Source of the DNA: Escherichia coli
GTDB lineage: Bacteria > Pseudomonadota > Gammaproteobacteria > Enterobacterales > Enterobacteriaceae
Direction: 5' to 3' (one strand)
DNA: 64,000 bases
Assembly: GCF_013122565.1 (NCBI RefSeq)
Contig: NZ_CP053258.1
The notes beneath the pieces were generated by a model. That model ran no database searches and had not been told where the DNA came from. It saw nothing but the letters and a program-made list of their open reading frames with translations. A program made the translations under genes and the position numbers. Positions 4,427 through 57,070 of this stretch are shown here, piece after piece (positions within the stretch are counted from its first letter, which is position 1; each line of letters opens with the position of its first letter).

Positions 4427-4574
4427 AACTTTGCCTCAGGCATTAGAAATAGCGCGTTATTGTACACGGATTAATCGCACTACAAAACAGGATCACAAAC
4501 ATCCTCCGCAAACAAGTATTGCAGAGTCCCTTTGTGATCGCTTTCACGGAGCATAAAAAGGGTTATCCAAAGGT

Positions 4575-4650
4575 CATTGCACCAATATGGTGCTTAATGT
4601 TTCCATTGAAGCACTATATTGGTGCAACATTCACATCATGGTGCAGCCCT
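4575..4650 (+). promoter_or_regulatory. NtrC (NRI) enhancer sites upstream of glnA
   Basis: Repeated TGCACCA-N-TGGTGCA-type dyads (tgcaccaatatggtgc; tggtgcaacattcacatcatggtgca). Confidence 0.7.
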
Positions 4651-4798: not shown

Positions 4799-6208
4799 AT
4801 GTCCGCTGAACACGTACTGACGATGCTGAACGAGCACGAAGTGAAGTTTGTTGATTTGCGCTTCACCGATACCAAAGGTAAAGAACAGCACGTCACTATC
4901 CCTGCTCATCAGGTGAATGCTGAATTCTTCGAAGAAGGCAAAATGTTTGACGGCTCCTCGATTGGCGGCTGGAAAGGCATTAACGAATCCGACATGGTGC
5001 TGATGCCAGACGCATCCACCGCAGTGATTGACCCGTTCTTCGCCGACTCTACCCTGATTATCCGTTGCGACATCCTTGAACCTGGCACCCTGCAAGGCTA
5101 TGACCGTGACCCGCGCTCTATTGCGAAGCGCGCCGAAGATTACCTGCGTTCCACTGGCATTGCCGACACCGTACTGTTCGGGCCAGAACCTGAATTCTTC
5201 CTGTTCGATGACATCCGTTTCGGATCATCTATCTCCGGTTCTCACGTTGCTATCGACGATATCGAAGGCGCATGGAACTCCTCCACCCAATATGAAGGTG
5301 GTAACAAAGGTCACCGTCCGGCAGTGAAAGGCGGTTACTTCCCGGTGCCACCTGTAGACTCTGCTCAGGATATTCGTTCTGAAATGTGTCTGGTGATGGA
5401 ACAGATGGGTCTGGTGGTTGAAGCCCATCACCACGAAGTAGCGACTGCTGGTCAGAACGAAGTGGCTACCCGCTTCAATACCATGACCAAAAAAGCTGAC
5501 GAAATTCAGATCTACAAATATGTTGTGCACAACGTGGCGCACCGCTTCGGTAAAACCGCGACCTTTATGCCAAAACCGATGTTCGGTGATAACGGCTCCG
5601 GTATGCACTGCCACATGTCGCTGTCTAAAAACGGCGTTAACCTGTTCGCGGGTGACAAATATGCAGGTCTGTCTGAGCAGGCGCTGTACTACATTGGCGG
5701 CGTAATCAAACACGCTAAAGCGATTAACGCCCTGGCAAACCCGACCACCAACTCTTACAAGCGTCTGGTCCCGGGCTACGAAGCACCGGTAATGCTGGCT
5801 TACTCTGCGCGTAACCGTTCTGCGTCTATCCGTATTCCGGTGGTTTCTTCTCCGAAAGCACGTCGTATCGAAGTACGTTTCCCGGATCCGGCGGCTAACC
5901 CGTACCTGTGCTTTGCTGCCCTGCTGATGGCCGGTCTTGATGGTATCAAGAACAAGATCCATCCGGGCGAAGCCATGGACAAAAACCTGTATGACCTGCC
6001 GCCAGAAGAAGCGAAAGAGATCCCACAAGTTGCAGGCTCTCTGGAAGAAGCACTGAACGAGCTGGATCTGGACCGCGAGTTCCTGAAAGCCGGTGGCGTG
6101 TTCACGGATGAAGCGATCGATGCGTACATCGCTCTGCGTCGCGAAGAAGATGACCGCGTGCGTATGACTCCGCATCCGGTAGAGTTTGAGCTGTACTACA
6201 GCGTCTAA
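4799..6208 (+). CDS. glnA: Glutamine synthetase
   Basis: 469-aa [34 protein letters not shown], classic GS type I. Confidence 0.97.
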
Positions 6209-8964: not shown

Positions 8965-9074
8965 TTCAGGCTTGTGTGTAAAGATTGATTATTGAGCGCA
9001 AATTGCTGGTATTTTGCGCTTTACTGTTCCGATAAGTTCAGTATGATCTTGCCCGGAAAACGGGGAGAGTCATT

Positions 9075-9185
9075 ATGCTGGAATCAATAATTAATCTGGT
9101 ATCGAGTGGCGCAGTTGACAGCCACACACCGCAAACTGCTGTTGCTGCCGTGCTGTGTGCCGCGATGATTGGGCTGTTTAGTTGA
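9075..9185 (+). CDS. yshB: Small protein YshB (36 aa)
   Basis: ATG with ggggagag RBS; MLESIINLVSSGAVDSHTPQTAVAAVLCAAMIGLFS, position between glnG and hemN. Confidence 0.6.
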   Translation: MLESIINLVSSGAVDSHTPQTAVAAVLCAAMIGLFS

Positions 9186-9189
9186 AGCT

Positions 9190-9300
<111 letters not shown>

Positions 9301-9384
9301 ACAAAAGCAATAATTTCAACAGGTTTTGTTGACCAGCGCATCAGGCAACCTTGTTCTCAGCACATTGATAGCGCCATTCACTAT

Positions 9385-10758
9385 TTAAATCACCCGAGAG
9401 AACTGCTGCATCCGCGCTTTCTGGCGCAGATAGGTATCAAAGCACATGCAAATGTTGCGGATCAGCAAGCGACCTTTCGCCGTCACCTGTATTCCCTTCT
9501 CATCCACATCCACCAGCCCATCTTTTGCTAATGGGGCGAGCAGCTTGAGATCTTCCGCAAAGTAATCAGCGAAGTGCAAATCCCACTGTTTCTCAATAGG
9601 GGCGTAATCCAGACGGAAGTTGCAGATGAGCGACTTAATCACATCGCGGCGAATACAGTCATCACGCGTTAGCGCAATACCACGCCACAGCGCGTTGCCT
9701 TGTTCATCCACTTGCTGATAGTACTGCTTCAACTCTTTCTGGTTCTGCGCGTAGCAGTCGCCAATCATGCTGATGGCGGAAACGCCCATCCCCAGCAGAT
9801 CGGTATCGCCCTGAGTGGTGTAGCCCTGGAAGTTACGATGCAGCACGCCTTCACGCTGGGCCACCGCCAGCTCGTCATCCGGACGGGCAAAGTGATCCAT
9901 ACCGATAAACTGATAGCCCGATTGCGTCAGGAAGGCGATGGTTTCCTGCAGGATATCGAGTTTTTGCTGCGGACTCGGCAGGTCAGCATCTTTGATTTTG
10001 CGCTGAGCAGCAAAAATGGTCGGCAGATGCGCATAGTTAAAGACGCTCAGACGGTCAGGGTTTAGCTCCGCCACGCGTTTCAGGGTAAAGGCGAAACTTT
10101 CCGGCGTCTGTTTCGGCAGGCCGTAAATCAGGTCGATGTTGGTGGAGGTAAAGCCAATCTCACGCGCATGGTTAAGCAGCGCAAAGATAAACTCTTCATC
10201 CTGCTCGCGGTTAACCAGACGTTGCACTTCTTTGTTGAAGTCCTGCACGCCCATACTCAGGCGATTAAAGCCCTCGGCGCGTAAATGATCGAGTACATCC
10301 AGTTCGATTTCCCGCGGATCGACTTCGATCGAAATCTCCGCATCGGCATTGAACTGGAAGTTTTCGCGCAGCAGCTTCATCAGGCGGCTGATTTGCGCTT
10401 TATTAAGATACGTCGGCGTTCCGCCGCCCCAGTGCAGCTGGCTGACGTGACGCCCGGCGAACAGCGGTGCACGATGGACGATTTCTTGCTCCAGCGCGTC
10501 CAGATACTGATCGGCCTTGTGCTGCTGGCGAGTAACAATCTTATTACAACCGCAGAAGTAACAAAGCTTATGGCAGAACGGGATATGTACGTAGAGAGAT
10601 AATGGACGCTCAGGATAGCGCGCCACGGCTTGTAAAAACGCCTGTTCGCCGAAGTCTTCTGAAAACTCCAGCGCGGTCGGGTACGAGGTGTATCGTGGCC
10701 CGGAATAGTTATATTTCTGGATCAGGGCCAGATCCCAGTCGATTTGCTGTACAGACAT
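9385..10758 (-). CDS. hemN: Oxygen-independent coproporphyrinogen III oxidase (radical SAM)
   Basis: ORF with CHKLCYFCGC motif and WGGGTPTYL; start trimmed to MSVQQIDWDL. Confidence 0.93.
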   Translation of the reverse strand: MSVQQIDWDLALIQKYNYSGPRYTSYPTALEFSEDFGEQAFLQAVARYPERPLSLYVHIPFCHKLCYFCGCNKIVTRQQHKADQYLDALEQEIVHRAPLFAGRHVSQLHWGGGTPTYLNKAQISRLMKLLRENFQFNADAEISIEVDPREIELDVLDHLRAEGFNRLSMGVQDFNKEVQRLVNREQDEEFIFALLNHAREIGFTSTNIDLIYGLPKQTPESFAFTLKRVAELNPDRLSVFNYAHLPTIFAAQRKIKDADLPSPQQKLDILQETIAFLTQSGYQFIGMDHFARPDDELAVAQREGVLHRNFQGYTTQGDTDLLGMGVSAISMIGDCYAQNQKELKQYYQQVDEQGNALWRGIALTRDDCIRRDVIKSLICNFRLDYAPIEKQWDLHFADYFAEDLKLLAPLAKDGLVDVDEKGIQVTAKGRLLIRNICMCFDTYLRQKARMQQFSRVI

Positions 10759-10946
10759 GCTCACTCCTTCCGATGGCGTCTCTGGCGGCTACGGCGTACC
10801 GGCGGATGCCCGTTTCGGGTCATCAGCCGGTTGCGCAGCCACTTTTGTCGCCGCGACAACCGCTGTAGTTTAACGAATAACCACACCAGATAACATATAA
10901 CCGGAAGGGTTATCAGCAGAACGGGAAGGCCCACGGCGGAAATCCG

Positions 10947-11456
10947 TTAGTTACCCCGCAGCAGACGCATCATGTCTTCTTGCTTCTCGTCTTCTTCCTC
11001 TTCTTCGTCATCGTCATAAGAGAGGCCGAGTTTCTGCATCAACTCATCAATACGATCCAGTTTAGCATCCACCCAGGATTGCTCTTCGGCGCTCAGGGTT
11101 TCGCCTGCTTCCAGACGTTCCAGCAGCGCATCCAGACGCTCATCCGTTTCCAGTAATTCCAACTCCGCCTGCGGTGAAAGCATAGGTTTCTCACTCTTCG
11201 GTTTGTGCTGTTTGGTGACTTTTTCAGTCACGCCCAATGGAATAGGGGTTTTGCTGCCAATACGTGGATCTTTCGGTGCGTTCTGGCCTTTGCTGCCTGA
11301 CGTGGTGTTACCGCCCGCTGCGCGGCTGCCCGGCGCATGACCACGACGTTTTTTCTGACGCTTACGGTCACGAGCTTCCTGATCCAGCTCCTCGCGTGTT
11401 TTTCGACGCGCTTTTGCATGACCTTTGCTGCGTGAGTTTGAAGATGATGGTTTCAT
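10947..11456 (-). CDS. yihI: Der GTPase-activating protein YihI
   Basis: Highly basic N-terminus, acidic C-terminal tail [14 protein letters not shown]; start set at internal MKPSSSNSR. Confidence 0.85.
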
Positions 11457-11524
11457 AATGGTTCGTCTTTTAGCCGTTTTATTCAGTATAGATTTGCGGC
11501 GGAATCTAACAGAAAGCAAGCAAA

Positions 11525-11789
11525 GAAAAAAGGCGACAGATTACTCTGTCGCCTTTTTTCCTGACTCATAACCCTTAACGGGTCTTACAATCCTTGCAGG
11601 CCGCCAACACACCCTGTTTTTCCATTAGCCGGAACAATCCGTGTTGATTCCATTTCCGTTTAATTACGTCTCCGGACGTTTGTCTTCCTGACAATCCTCT
11701 GTCTTCGCCTCCTGGCGCTCCTGACCCTCATCCTGAGTCATTGTTCCTGTTAGCGTCCTCGCTCTATGGGTGCTACTTTACGCCTTTGC
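11525..11789 (-). ncRNA. csrC: CsrC small RNA (CsrA-sequestering)
   Basis: Reverse complement reads ATAGAGCGAGGACGCTAACAGGAACAATGACTCAGGATGAGGGTCAGGAGCG... with many GGA motifs, ending in the hairpin aaggcgacagagtaatctgtcgcc + U-run; sits between engB and yihI. Confidence 0.85.
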
Positions 11790-12037
11790 TTTAAACAAAC
11801 AATCAACCGCCATCAGCATTTGCACATTTTCAGAGTTTTATATAAAAGCAATTAGCTGATTTATATAGCTTATTTGATATGGATCGCAGAATTTTCTCTG
11901 CTATTTCGCATAAAGACTATCGGCAATGTCTCACAAAGCGTATGGCTTTTACTTACAACGCTCACGCCGAAAAATCCGCCTTTTATTATGGTTCAGGTAT
12001 AATCGCCACAAAGCTTTGACTGACGGAGACGACCGCT

Positions 12038-12670
12038 TTGACTAATTTGAATTATCAACAGACGCATTTTGTGATGAGTGCGCCAGATATTCGCCACCTA
12101 CCTTCCGATACCGGAATTGAAGTGGCTTTTGCAGGCCGTTCCAACGCAGGTAAATCCAGCGCGCTGAACACGCTGACTAACCAGAAAAGCCTGGCTCGTA
12201 CCTCAAAAACCCCTGGACGCACCCAGCTTATCAACCTGTTTGAAGTGGCTGACGGCAAGCGTCTGGTTGACTTGCCTGGGTACGGTTATGCGGAAGTCCC
12301 GGAAGAGATGAAGCGCAAATGGCAGCGCGCGCTCGGCGAATACCTCGAAAAACGTCAGAGCCTGCAAGGTCTGGTGGTGCTAATGGATATTCGCCATCCG
12401 CTGAAAGATTTGGATCAGCAGATGATTGAGTGGGCGGTAGACAGCAATATCGCCGTTCTGGTGCTGCTGACCAAAGCGGACAAACTGGCAAGCGGCGCAC
12501 GTAAAGCGCAATTGAATATGGTGCGTGAAGCGGTGCTGGCGTTTAACGGTGATGTGCAGGTTGAAACGTTTTCTTCGCTGAAGAAACAAGGCGTGGACAA
12601 GCTGCGGCAGAAACTGGATACCTGGTTTAGCGAGATGCAGCCTGTAGAAGAAACGCAGGACGGCGAATAA
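12038..12670 (+). CDS. engB: Ribosome biogenesis GTPase EngB/YihA
   Basis: 210-aa ORF with [10 protein letters not shown]-loop; TTG start codon at 12038. Confidence 0.9.
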
Positions 12671-12689
12671 TTTTCTTGCCTTAAAGCTT

Positions 12690-12772
12690 GTGCCGGATGT
12701 GGCGTATCCGGCCCGTAAATTCAATAGATTACAATTCTACCGTTGGCCTGATAAACATGGCGCATCAGGCAT
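12690..12772. repeat. REP elements
   Basis: gccggatgtggcgtatccggc ... ggcctgataaacatggcgcatcaggc. Confidence 0.7.
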
Positions 12773-12795
12773 TACGGACTTTTTCTTTCGCCCAA

Positions 12796-12904
12796 TAAAA
12801 AACGCCCCAGTCATTACTGACTGGGGCGGCTAAAATATTCAGCCAAATCCGATTACGTGAAGTAAAAGGTCTGAAAGATAGAACATCTTACCTCTGTACC
12901 CTAC
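12796..12904 (-). ncRNA. spf: Spot 42 small RNA
   Basis: Reverse complement reads GTAGGGTACAGAGGTAAGATGTTCTATCTTTCAGACC...GCCGCCCCAGTCAGTAATGACTGGGGCGTTTTTTATT, matching Spot 42 and its terminator; located between polA and engB. Confidence 0.9.
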
Positions 12905-13051
12905 GCGACTAACTTTACTCTTTTTTGTTCAGTTCAGAAAGCACTTTTTGTAATTTTTTTTCAGTTGTTGCATAGGAATTTCTAATAGCCATCACAAAAC
13001 GTGACAGCTTATGTTGCTTACTTACGAAAAAAGGGCATGTTCAGGCGAATC

Positions 13052-15838
13052 TTAGTGCGCCTGATCCCAGTTTTCGCCACTCCCCACTTCCACCAGCAAC
13101 GGCACATCCAGACGGGTACAGTTTTCCATCAGTTGATGAATCTGCTTCGCGACGGCATCGACATCATCTTTATGAACTTCAAATACCAGTTCATCGTGTA
13201 CCTGCATGATCATACGCACACGCGGTTGCTCAGCCTGTAACCACGCATCAACGGCAATCATCGCCCGTTTGATAATGTCGGCGGCGGTTCCCTGCATTGG
13301 CGCGTTAATAGCTGCACGTTCAGCCGCTGCACGACGAGCACCATTGCTGGATTTGATATCCGGCAGATACAGACGGCGTCCGTCCAGCGTTTCAACGTAG
13401 CCCTGCTCTTTCGCCTGAGCACGGGTGCGTTCCATATACTCCAGCACGCCAGGGTAGCGTTCGAAGTAAAGGTCCATGTACTTCTGCGCTTCTTTACGTG
13501 GAATGTTCAATTGCCGCGCCAGACCGAAAGCACTCATGCCATAAATCAGACCAAAGTTGATCGCTTTCGCGCTACGGCGTTGCTCGCTGGTGACGGTTTC
13601 CAGTGGCAAACCAAACACTTCTGCCGCCGTTGCCCGGTGGATATCTTTTCCTTCCGCGAATGCGGTCAGCAAGCCTTTGTCACGCGAGAGATGCGCCATA
13701 ATGCGCAGTTCAATCTGCGAGTAGTCCGCTGAGACAATCACATAATCCTCTGGCGCAATAAACGCCTGGCGGATACGACGACCTTCTTCGTTACGCACCG
13801 GAATGTTTTGCAGGTTAGGATCGGTTGACGATAAACGTCCCGTTGCAGTTACTGCCTGGTGATAAGAGGTATGCACACGCCCGGTTTTCGGGTTGATCAT
13901 CAGCGGCAGCTTGTCGGTGTAAGTCGACTTCAGCTTCGCCAGACCACGATACTCCAGAATCACTTTTGGCAACGGATAGTCCAGCGCCAGTTCTTCCAGT
14001 ACCTCTTCCGACGTTGACGGCGCGCCACCCGGCGTTTTCTTCAGCGGTTTAATGCCCTGTTTTTCAAACAGAATGGTTTGTAACTGCTTGGTGGAAGAAA
14101 GGTTAAATTCTTCACCTGCAATTTCATGCGCTTTCTTTTCCAGCTCAGCAAGACGAAGGGTGAGCTCTTCAGAATGATTGTGCAGCACTTTCGGATCGAT
14201 CTTCACACCGTTACGTTCAATGCGTGAAAGCACCGGCACCAGCGGCATTTCGATATTCTCGAAGACGTTCAACGGCCCTTTGTGTTTTTGCAGATCCGGC
14301 CACATTTTCAGATGCAACTGCAAGGTGACATCCGCATCTTCGGCGGCGTAACGTCCGGCCTCTTCGAGGGCAATCTGGTTAAAGGTCAGTTGATTTTTGC
14401 CTTTACCCGCAATCTCTTCAAAAGTGATGGTTTTGTGCTTCAACCAACGTTCCGCGAGGCTGTCCATATCGTGACGCCCGGCAACGCTATTGAGAATGTA
14501 GGACTCCAGCATGGTATCAAACGCAATCCCACGCAGCTCAATGCCGTAATTCGCCAGAATACCGCGGTCGTATTTCAGGTTTTGCCCGACCTTCAGCGCC
14601 TTTTCATTTTCCAGCAGCGGTTTTAGCAACTCGAGTGCACGCTCGCGAGAGATTTGATCGGGCGCATCAAGATAATCATGAGCAACCGGAATATATGCCG
14701 CTACGCCTGGCTCGATAGCAAAAGAAAGCCCGACCAGGTTAGCAGAGATGTTATCGAGGCTGTCGGTTTCGGTATCAAATGCAAATACCGGCGCTTTTTC
14801 CAGCTTCGCAATCCACGCTTTCAGTGTTTCTTCATCAAGGATGGTGACGTAGTTGTCATAAGAAATCACCGTTGCCGTCACTTCTGGCGCTTCGTCTGCA
14901 ACACTGGTTTCCTGCGGTCTGGCTGCGGGTTTCGCCCCTTTAGCCTGTAACCATTTGCCCGCTTCGACATCAGCAGTCCAGCGTTTGAACTCATACTTTT
15001 TGAACAGCCCCAACAACTCTTCCGCCGCCGGTTGCTGCACTTCCAGTTGTTCACAGGTCAGCTCCAGTTCAACGTCGGTTTTAATCGTCGCCAGCTGGTA
15101 TGAGAGATAAGCAACTTCTTTGTTTTGCTCGAGCTTCGCTGCCATTGTTTTCGCGCCACGGAAGCTCAACCCAGCAATTTTTTCTGGCTCGGCATACAGC
15201 GTATCCAGTCCGCCAAGACCTTGCAGCAATGCCTGCGCGGTTTTTTCACCGACGCCCGGTACGCCAGGGATGTTATCAGAGGAGTCACCCATCAGCGCCA
15301 GGAAGTCGATGATCAGTTCAGGCGGCACGCCGTACTTATTCACCACCTCTTCCGGTCCGAGGATGGTATTCGTCATGGTATTGATAAGCGTAATATTTGG
15401 CGTCACCAGCTGCGCCATATCTTTATCGCCAGTGCTGATCAGCACCGGACGCCCAGCTTTTTCGGCTTCGCGCGCCAGAGTACCGATAACGTCGTCCGCT
15501 TCTACGCCAGAAACCGCCAGCAGCGGCAGTCCCATCGCTTTAACCATCGCGTGCAGAGGTTCGATTTGTGCTCGCAGATCGTCCGGCATTGGCGGGCGAT
15601 GTGATTTGTAATGTTCAAACAGTTCATCACGAAAGGTTTTTCCCTTGGCGTCAAAGACCACCGCTGCATGCGTCGGTTTATATTGCATGATCAGACTGCG
15701 CAGCATGTTGAGGACACCATACATCGCACCGGTAGGCTCGCCTGCGCTGTTAGTCAGCGGGGGAAACGCGTGATATGCGCGATAAAGATAAGATGAACCA
15801 TCTACAAGGATAAGTGGATTTTGGGGGATCTGAACCAT
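13052..15838 (-). CDS. polA: DNA polymerase I
   Basis: 928-aa [28 protein letters not shown]...; 5'-3' exo, 3'-5' exo and polymerase domains. Confidence 0.97.
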
Positions 15839-15960
15839 AATGTCCGTGCCTGTTTATCAGTTTATGGGTAAAGGATGCCACAGACAGGATGAAAACATGA
15901 GTTTTTCGCCGCTTTTCGTGAAAATCTTTTGTAGATCTTCTGGATCGCTCGCAAATCGTC

Positions 15961-15969
15961 ATGTGGATA
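15961..15969 (-). promoter_or_regulatory. DnaA box (TTATCCACA) in polA upstream region
   Basis: tgtggataa on + strand is a perfect reverse-complement DnaA box; a second near-consensus box (tgtggatag) lies near 16101. Confidence 0.5.
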
Positions 15970-16201
15970 ACTTTGTGCATAAATTATTTACATCGCTTTT
16001 AATTTATTATCATGCTTTTTACAGCATGATGTTTGTCTTTGTTTTTCATGTAGTTAAAAATAAAGCCATCCCTAATAATTGAGATAATGGGATTTTTTCT
16101 AATGTGGATAGATATGAATTATTTTTCTCCTTAAGGATCATCCGTTATTTGGGGCGTTTTCTGCTAAAATCTGCGCCTTGCGCTTCTTTAGCGCACTGTC
16201 T

Positions 16202-21999: not shown

Positions 22000-22119
22000 A
22001 TGCCTGGCAGTTCCCTACTCTCGCATGGGGAGACCCCACACTACCATCGGCGCTACGGCGTTTCACTTCTGAGTTCGGCATGGGGTCAGGTGGGACCACC
22101 GCGCTACGGCCGCCAGGCA
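22000..22119 (-). rRNA. rrfA: 5S ribosomal RNA
   Basis: Reverse complement matches TGCCTGGCGGCCGTAGCGCGGTGGTCCCACCTGACCCCATGCCGAACTCAG...GGGAACTGCCAGGCAT. Confidence 0.97.
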
Positions 22120-22211
22120 AATTCTGTTTTATCAGACCGCTTCTGCGTTCTGATTTAATCTGGATCAGGCTGAAAATCTTCTCTCATCCGCCAAAACAGC
22201 TTCGGCGTTGT

Positions 22212-25115
<2,904 letters not shown>

Positions 25116-25289
25116 TCACAACCCGAAGATGTTTCACTTCAGAGTTGCGAAAATTTGAGAGACTCACGAACAACTTTCGTTGTTCAGTGTTTCAATTTTC
25201 AGCTTGATCCAGATTTTTAAAGAGCAAAACTTCGCAGTGAACCTTTGCAGGTACACTCTGAAGTATTTTTTATTTAATCACTACAGAGA

Positions 25290-25365
25290 TGGTGGAGCTA
25301 TGCGGGATCGAACCGCAGACCTCCTGCGTGCAAAGCAGGCGCTCTCCCAGCTGAGCTATAGCCCC
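25290..25365 (-). tRNA. alaT: tRNA-Ala (anticodon UGC), rrn spacer
   Basis: rc = GGGGCTATAGCTCAGCTGGGAGAGCGCCTGCTTTGCACGCAGGAGGTCTGCGGTTCGATCCCGCATAGCTCCACCA. Confidence 0.97.
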
Positions 25366-25407
25366 ATAACATGTAGTTAAAACCTCTTCAAATTTGCGGT
25401 GCAAATT

Positions 25408-25484
<77 letters not shown>

Positions 25485-25552
25485 GTAGAGGTTTTACTGC
25501 TCATTTTCATCAGACAATCTGTGTGAGCACTGCAAAGTACAGTTCTTTAAGG

Positions 25553-27094
<1,542 letters not shown>

Positions 27095-35017: not shown

Positions 35018-35220
<203 letters not shown>

Positions 35221-40658: not shown

Positions 40659-42901
<2,243 letters not shown>

Positions 42902-56611: not shown

Positions 56612-57070
56612 TTAGTCTCTGAGAGGGTAATCCTGGATACTGGATTCCAGATTTGTCAGGATCAAAGCGACATCGGCATCCGCCAAACGAAACTCCGCCT
56701 GCCATATATTCTCTGACGTATGAAACGTAGGGCATAGCCCGCAAGCCAGTATCACATTGATAATAATGACATCACCGGAATACCCTGTGTATTCGAACTC
56801 CAGGCATGGCTCGGTAAATTCCAGATTTTTCTCTGGGTAGCCATCGGGAGAAGGGCGCTGCAACAATGTGGTAAACCACCTATGAAGCTTTGTTAAGTCA
56901 TATGTCCCTATTGCCGGATCTATCTTTTCAAACCGCTGATTTCCCTGCGTCACGCCCACTTTGAGGAATAACCAGTTACCATCCCAGAAATTACTGGTAT
57001 CAGGATACTGATACCCCATAACATCCAGCGTCAAAGTAACGGCCAGCTCACTATTGCTTAACGTAATCAT
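56612..57070 (-). CDS. Hypothetical 152-aa cytoplasmic protein, no recognisable family
   Basis: Uninterrupted ORF filling nearly all of the 570-bp pldA-recQ spacer; no TM segments or signal peptide evident; weak SD; not a gene I can place in the K-12 gene order. Confidence 0.55.
   Translation of the reverse strand: MITLSNSELAVTLTLDVMGYQYPDTSNFWDGNWLFLKVGVTQGNQRFEKIDPAIGTYDLTKLHRWFTTLLQRPSPDGYPEKNLEFTEPCLEFEYTGYSGDVIIINVILACGLCPTFHTSENIWQAEFRLADADVALILTNLESSIQDYPLRD

Follow-up and report, generated by a model that had tools for sequence, protein, structure and literature searches.

What occupies the DNA on either side of engB (yihA), where two intergenic gaps hold no obvious protein-coding gene, is the question raised by this part of the 64-kb stretch of E. 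coli DNA analysed here (the window). An earlier note had proposed that two conserved regulatory RNAs, CsrC and Spot 42, flank engB within positions 11525-12904, and had named an Rfam covariance scan and a comparison with K-12 csrC and spf as ways of checking the proposal. Rfam 15 covariance models were run on positions 9000-16000 and then on the whole window with the curated gathering thresholds applied, and the boundaries of the sRNAs were fixed by alignment to the annotated locus of E. coli K-12 MG1655. Both families score far above gathering (277.9 bits against 61 for CsrC and 122.8 against 80 for Spot 42), and the two genes are identical to their K-12 counterparts at 245 of 246 and 111 of 111 nucleotides and are arranged as in K-12. 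The TIGR03598 equivalog matches the intervening gene at 252.2 bits (cutoff 124.45). The span is almost certainly made up of the orthologues of E. coli csrC and spf, both on the minus strand, flanking yihA/engB on the plus strand. The earlier note gave no strands, and its coordinates are close to those obtained here: the right edge is the K-12 spf +1, and the left edge lies 3 nt inside the K-12 csrC 3′ end. The features of the locus are collected in Table 1.

Table 1. Coordinates of genes, RNA elements and candidate regulatory sites at the csrC-yihA-spf locus, in window positions.
Feature	Position	Strand	Basis
hemN	9385-10758	-	K-12 alignment
yihI	10947-11456	-	NF003560, 169 bits
csrC (CsrC sRNA, 246 nt by K-12 annotation)	11522..11767	-	Rfam RF00084 and K-12 b4457 alignment
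CsrC intrinsic terminator (18-pair stem, GUAA loop, then U-run)	11523..11562	-	terminator scan
A144U, sole csrC difference from K-12	11624	-	K-12 alignment
Putative csrC -10 hexamer TAAAGT, 7 nt before +1	11775..11780	-	read from sequence
Candidate CRP-like palindrome TGCGATCCATATCAAA, 8/10 core positions	11873..11888	-	pattern search
UvrY (BarA-UvrY) binding inverted repeat TGTGAGACATTGCCGATA	11918..11935	-	exact match to footprinted sequence
TGTAAG half-site, 16 bp upstream of UvrY repeat	11952..11957	-	sequence and spacing exactly as PMC4682653
yihA/engB, ribosome-biogenesis GTPase, 210 aa, TTG start	12038..12670	+	TIGR03598
Two palindromes, presumably REP-like, in yihA-spf 3′-end spacer	12692..12770	.	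inverted-repeat search
spf (Spot 42 RNA)	12794..12904	-	Rfam RF00021 and K-12 b3864 alignment
Spot 42 intrinsic terminator (11-pair GC-rich stem, then UUUUUU)	12803..12828	-	terminator scan, Rfam, MFE fold
spfP ORF in Spot 42, 15 codons and stop, encoding MFYLSDLLLHVIGFG	12839..12886	-	identical to K-12 b4837
Single GGA of Spot 42, nt 55-57, within unpaired nt 48-60	12848..12850	-	motif count and MFE fold
Putative spf -10 hexamer TAAAGT, 7 nt before +1	12912..12917	-	read from sequence
Candidate CRP-like palindrome TGTGATGGCTATTAGA, 8/10 core positions, -77..-92 of spf	12981..12996	-	pattern search
polA	13052-15838	-	K-12 alignment

The CsrC match (RF00084, 11514-11767, minus strand, E=1.3e-88) covers positions 1-255 of the 255-position model and overruns the K-12 3′ boundary by 8 nt. 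With the best of overlapping same-clan matches kept, the match at this locus is CsrC. The gene is 99.6% identical to K-12 b4457, and its one difference, A144U, falls on the final nucleotide of a hairpin loop of the Rfam consensus, directly 5′ of a GGA. A 60-mer with this allele occurs identically in 2515 of 5422 complete E. coli genomes (~46%), so A144U is a common, ordinary polymorphism. The gene is intergenic: yihI starts at 11456 and yihA at 12038, and csrC lies in the 581 bp that separate them. Homologues of csrC always adjoin yihA and yihI (PMC1488887), and the matches to NF003560 and TIGR03598 identify the same two neighbors here.

Sequence criteria for sRNAs that regulate CsrA have been set out by Kulkarni et al. 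(2006, PMC1488887) as an intergenic position, richness in AGGA/ARGGA, a rho-independent terminator, GGA in loops or free regions, and an upstream site of the UvrY/GacA type, and all five are present in csrC of the window. The terminators that had been read at the ends of both sRNAs were recovered independently by the terminator scan, with 18 base pairs in CsrC and 11 in Spot 42 and a T-run after each. The CsrC hairpin is also part of the Rfam consensus and of the MFE fold, which has an energy of -87.7 kcal/mol (z = -6.98; 0/200 shuffles as stable). The multiple GGA motifs ascribed to CsrC number 14, in agreement with the count tabulated for CsrC in PMC10729762; the window-wide density predicts ~3.1, and csrC is the highest-scoring 246-nt GGA stretch in the 64 kb on either strand. 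Against dinucleotide shuffles (8.85 +/- 1.96) the enrichment in plain GGA is only moderate; the AGGA count is more telling, with 9 copies compared to 2.85 +/- 1.52 in shuffles and only 1 shuffle in 2000 reaching 9. There is one AAGGA besides the nine AGGA in the 246 nt. When placed on the Rfam consensus structure, six GGA motifs fall in hairpin loops, five in single-stranded linkers and three in paired or partly paired positions, leaving 11/14 unpaired, and in the MFE fold, too, most of them lie in loops or are unpaired.

The region upstream of csrC retains the known elements of its activation. The UvrY site of E. coli csrC was mapped by DNase I footprinting (Zere et al. 2015, PMC4682653), and the same 18-nt repeat is found here at -151..-168 of csrC. 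Five substitutions distinguish the csrC-yihA control region from K-12, all between -50 and -115 and outside both the UvrY repeat and the -10 hexamer. The CRP-like candidate at -106..-121 contains two differences from K-12, at 11878 and 11882, which fall in the spacer of the palindrome, outside its half-sites. According to Pannuri 2016, as cited in PMC7591399, cAMP-CRP competes with UvrY and represses E. coli csrC directly. As a separate observation on this spacer, an IS3-family (IS2-like) element of ~1.33 kb lies between csrC and yihA in six clinical E. coli (EC12, EC15, EC18, XH989, XH987 and W137). The element occupies 820-2147 of the EC12 locus, equivalent to window 11911-11918, right at the edge of the 18-nt UvrY repeat that faces csrC, and would shift the UvrY site ~1.3 kb from the csrC promoter. 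The window does not contain this IS3-family element.

On the other side of yihA, the Spot_42 match (RF00021, 12796-12914, minus strand, E=4e-25) covers positions 1-115 of the 115-position model, beginning 10 nt upstream of the K-12 5′ end and leaving out the last 2 nt of the K-12 gene. In the MFE fold, at -40.6 kcal/mol (z = -5.08; 0/200 shuffles as stable), Spot 42 has the three-hairpin architecture with unpaired regions and terminator: a 5′ hairpin of nt 1-47 is followed by unpaired nt 48-60, a hairpin of nt 61-77, the terminator hairpin of nt 78-101 and the U-run. CsrA protection of Spot 42 starts at nt 55 (PMC10729762), and the single GGA of the RNA coincides with this published contact site. 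The sRNA label of the earlier note needs qualification in one respect, since Spot 42 is not purely non-coding. Its spfP ORF is intact, with GAGGUAAG preceding the AUG as a Shine-Dalgarno sequence, and both the Shine-Dalgarno and the AUG are enclosed in the 5′ hairpin. The 15-aa SpfP protein made from Spot 42 binds CRP (PMC8916003). Spot 42 itself is described as CRP-repressed, with a predicted CRP site upstream, and as acting by Hfq-dependent base pairing (PMC8916003). The polA-spf spacer, 146 bp in K-12, is identical in the window save for an extra C at 13035. This base lies 131 nt upstream of the spf +1, near the polA stop codon, and the 130 bp closest to the start are those of K-12. Because the spacer is the same apart from this one C, the K-12 promoter and CRP elements, whichever of them act, are retained.

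The two promoter regions resemble each other. In both, a GTAAAGT -10-like context is followed by 7 nt to the +1, and a CRP-like palindrome lies upstream; the matching hexamers and palindromes may reflect either coincidence or shared regulation. The K-12 promoters are weak matches to consensus and TAAAGT is the -10 in both, so assignment of the promoters rests on identity with K-12. The search for CRP sites used the core TGTGA-N6-TCACA and returned only matches with two mismatches, one upstream of each RNA. By a rough calculation assuming uniform base composition, such a match is expected ~0.06-0.1 times per spacer. The palindromes are candidate CRP sites and not findings.

The identity, boundaries, structure, motifs, terminators, UvrY site and synteny of the two RNA genes are direct observations on the window, and they also delimit how much of the intergenic DNA the RNAs account for. 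The order hemN-yihI-csrC-yihA-spf-polA is that of K-12, with the window reverse-complemented; yihA is divergent from csrC and convergent with spf, and spf lies downstream of polA, as in K-12. The earlier note had held that the sRNAs explain the ORF-free space, and this is correct for part of it. In the yihI-yihA gap csrC fills 246 of 581 bp (42%); the other parts are the 270-bp divergent control region and 65 bp that separate the csrC 3′ end from the yihI start codon. In the 381-bp yihA-polA gap spf fills 111 bp (29%), and the rest consists of a 123-bp spacer with two palindromes and ~147 bp of promoter DNA. The remainder of the ORF-free space is regulatory DNA and REP-like palindromes rather than sRNA. 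The palindromes have the form GCCGGAT..ATCCGGC at 12692-12712 and GCCTGAT..ATCAGGC at 12746-12770. They are classed as REP-like by the REP consensus, and neither attains an Rfam gathering score.

Of the 5426 complete E. coli genomes, 5422-5425 carry the locus. Across the four flanking genes 67/5292 sites differ from K-12, nearly all of them synonymously: the YihA, YihI and HemN proteins are identical to those of K-12, PolA has 2 substitutions, and yihA carries 7 synonymous nucleotide differences. At 4-fold degenerate sites of these genes 40/855 differ (4.7%), compared to 1/357 sites (0.28%) in the two sRNAs together (Fisher p = 1.3e-5). This comparison points to nucleotide-level constraint on the sRNAs that is visible against the 4-fold sites. 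Compared with the remaining intergenic DNA at the locus, the sRNAs are not significantly less divergent (1/357 vs 11/793, p = 0.12).

Could the csrC region instead be a decayed protein-coding gene? RefSeq/PGAP implies as much, since in several E. coli genomes it places within csrC a pseudogene, 'hypothetical protein; frameshifted; internal stop', that corresponds to window 11575-11741 on the minus strand, and ORFs of 25 and 39 aa do occur on that strand within csrC. Both ORFs are short, their frames differ, and they consist largely of GGA repeats. The full CsrC covariance model is matched at its high score with hairpins and terminator included, the curated K-12 record b4457 is an ncRNA, and the strand asymmetry of GGA at csrC (14 on the transcribed minus strand, 2 on the opposite plus strand) fits an RNA motif. 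We consider the decayed-gene reading exceedingly improbable and reject the protein-gene call as an annotation artefact in which PGAP joins the 25- and 39-codon ORFs from different frames. A protein family appears to have been seeded spuriously from the csrC RNA. It might also be argued that the Rfam matches arose by chance, or that the GGA richness is merely compositional. Motif counts alone can indeed mislead, as 17 of 2000 shuffles reach the 14 GGA of CsrC. The E-values of 1e-88 and 4e-25 across full-length models, together with near-identity to characterised K-12 genes in synteny, rule out chance matching, and we give this possibility no weight.

A different concern is that the sRNAs are inactive relics whose transcription signals have been lost in the source strain. 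A simple consensus scan of 11400-13100 for sigma-70 promoters returned 0 sites, and the five substitutions in the csrC-yihA control region and the inserted base upstream of spf could be read in the same direction. However, the K-12 promoters have the same sequences, are equally weak and fail the same scan, so its result is uninformative. The 130 bp upstream of the spf +1 are identical to K-12; no change affects the UvrY repeat, the TGTAAG half-site or the -10-like hexamers, and the csrC substitutions lie outside the UvrY repeat and the -10. With the known sites unchanged, loss of the expression signals is unlikely, and we judge it very unlikely that the genes are relics. The preferred reading of the span remains that of intact csrC and spf orthologues around yihA.

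How these RNAs would act in the source strain, including their expression, their binding to CsrA and Hfq and their regulation, we infer from published work on K-12. K-12 CsrC binds and antagonises CsrA and is turned over via CsrD and RNase E, according to the reports of Weilbacher 2003 and Leng 2016 as cited in PMC7591399. Given 99.6% identity, the same antagonism and turnover would be expected for CsrC of the window. In such a mechanism the ~246-nt RNA would present unpaired GGA/AGGA in short hairpin loops and linkers to CsrA dimers and so would titrate CsrA away from its mRNA targets. Phosphorylated UvrY of the BarA-UvrY system, bound at the 18-bp repeat ~160 bp upstream, would switch on csrC from a distance, and cAMP-CRP reportedly represses csrC in E. 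coli. Spot 42, an Hfq-dependent RNA of ~109-111 nt, would be produced when cAMP-CRP is low, as on glucose, and its unpaired regions would repress mRNAs of secondary carbon-source utilisation by base-pairing with them. The galK mRNA is among the Hfq-dependent pairing targets of Spot 42 in K-12 (PMC8916003), and the Spot 42 target genes fall outside the window. SpfP (15 aa) made from the same RNA would bind CRP and reinforce the loop, with Spot 42, SpfP and CRP together forming a feed-forward loop. With both genes intact, the source strain presumably has the standard Csr and catabolite-repression RNA circuitry.

Two broader readings of the locus can be entertained, and taken together we regard them as improbable. 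One is that the arrangement of csrC and spf around yihA is itself functional and forms a co-regulated carbon-status module of ~1.4 kb. This idea derives from the facts that both RNAs contact CsrA, that both genes are reportedly repressed by CRP, and that UvrY cross-links at both: cross-linking is strong at csrC, and spf is also in the top enrichment group (PMC4682653). The other is that CsrC is a dual-function RNA by way of the 25-codon ORF at 11664-11741 on the minus strand.

The consequences of the identification made here concern the quality of annotation, and its importance is limited to that, since csrC and spf are among the best-studied regulatory RNAs of enterobacteria. As the earlier note had anticipated, annotation based on ORFs misses both: in other E. 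coli strains, RefSeq/PGAP annotates neither. Protein-centred pipelines omit csrC and spf and even overlay a spurious pseudogene on csrC. Since both RNAs are omitted in this way, a covariance-model pass should accompany ORF calling.

Several observations from other parts of the window were made in the course of this analysis. The window is collinear with K-12 MG1655 at ~3.999-4.063 Mb, reverse-complemented, with 97.5-98.5% identity throughout. Among the top full-length matches listed from the 5426 complete E. coli genomes, identity stays at or below 99.0% across 1.7 kb and 97.8% across 21 kb, and the source may therefore be a lineage that this collection lacks, for instance Shigella or a poorly sampled E. 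coli clade. A 152-aa ORF at 56612-57070 on the minus strand matches Pfam PF24716 (WapI-like immunity protein, 77.5 bits) and sits in a 447-bp insertion beside pldA, on the recQ side, which is absent from K-12 and is complete in only 2/5426 complete E. coli genomes (96.8% identity). With no toxin gene evident beside it, the ORF looks like an orphan immunity gene. The segment 59551-60521, counterpart of K-12 yigF/yigG, does not align to K-12. This cassette, which lies between rarD and corA, is either replaced or highly divergent, and its two small hydrophobic ORFs (105 aa minus, 128 aa plus) have no Pfam match. Other Rfam matches that reach the gathering score are ES222 at 4508-4615 (-), roughly at the position of the K-12 glnA 3′-UTR sRNA GlnZ; Erse/EsrE at 42296-42547 (-), inside ubiJ; naRNA4/REP-type elements at 9222-9299 (-) and 35074-35151 (-); and StyR-44 at 25123-25222 (-), flanked by the 23S rRNA and the spacer tRNAs. 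Positions 22002-27094 (-) hold a complete rrnA-type operon with two spacer tRNAs, where K-12 rrnA has tRNA-Ile and tRNA-Ala.

In sum, csrC and spf as found here are already known and a matter of ordinary annotation, and nothing departs from the K-12 picture. The spf gene shows no difference from K-12 spf (b3864; RF00021) and spfP (b4837) within the gene, and it shares with them the hairpins, GGA, terminator and position between polA and yihA; the extra C at 13035 is the sole upstream difference. The csrC gene shares with K-12 csrC (b4457; RF00084, in clan CL00106 with CsrB-type RNAs) its terminator, its 14 GGA motifs, the flanking yihA and yihI, and the upstream UvrY inverted repeat and half-site. 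It differs by A144U and by the five substitutions in the 270-bp upstream region, none of which is in the UvrY site. The larger paralogue of CsrC, CsrB (RF00018), uses the same CsrA decoy mechanism and likewise has GGA-bearing loops, activation by UvrY and a terminal intrinsic terminator (PMC4682653, PMC1488887). Unlike CsrC, CsrB is encoded beside syd and is a longer RNA with 22 GGA (PMC10729762), and its activation needs IHF, whereas that of csrC does not (PMC4682653).
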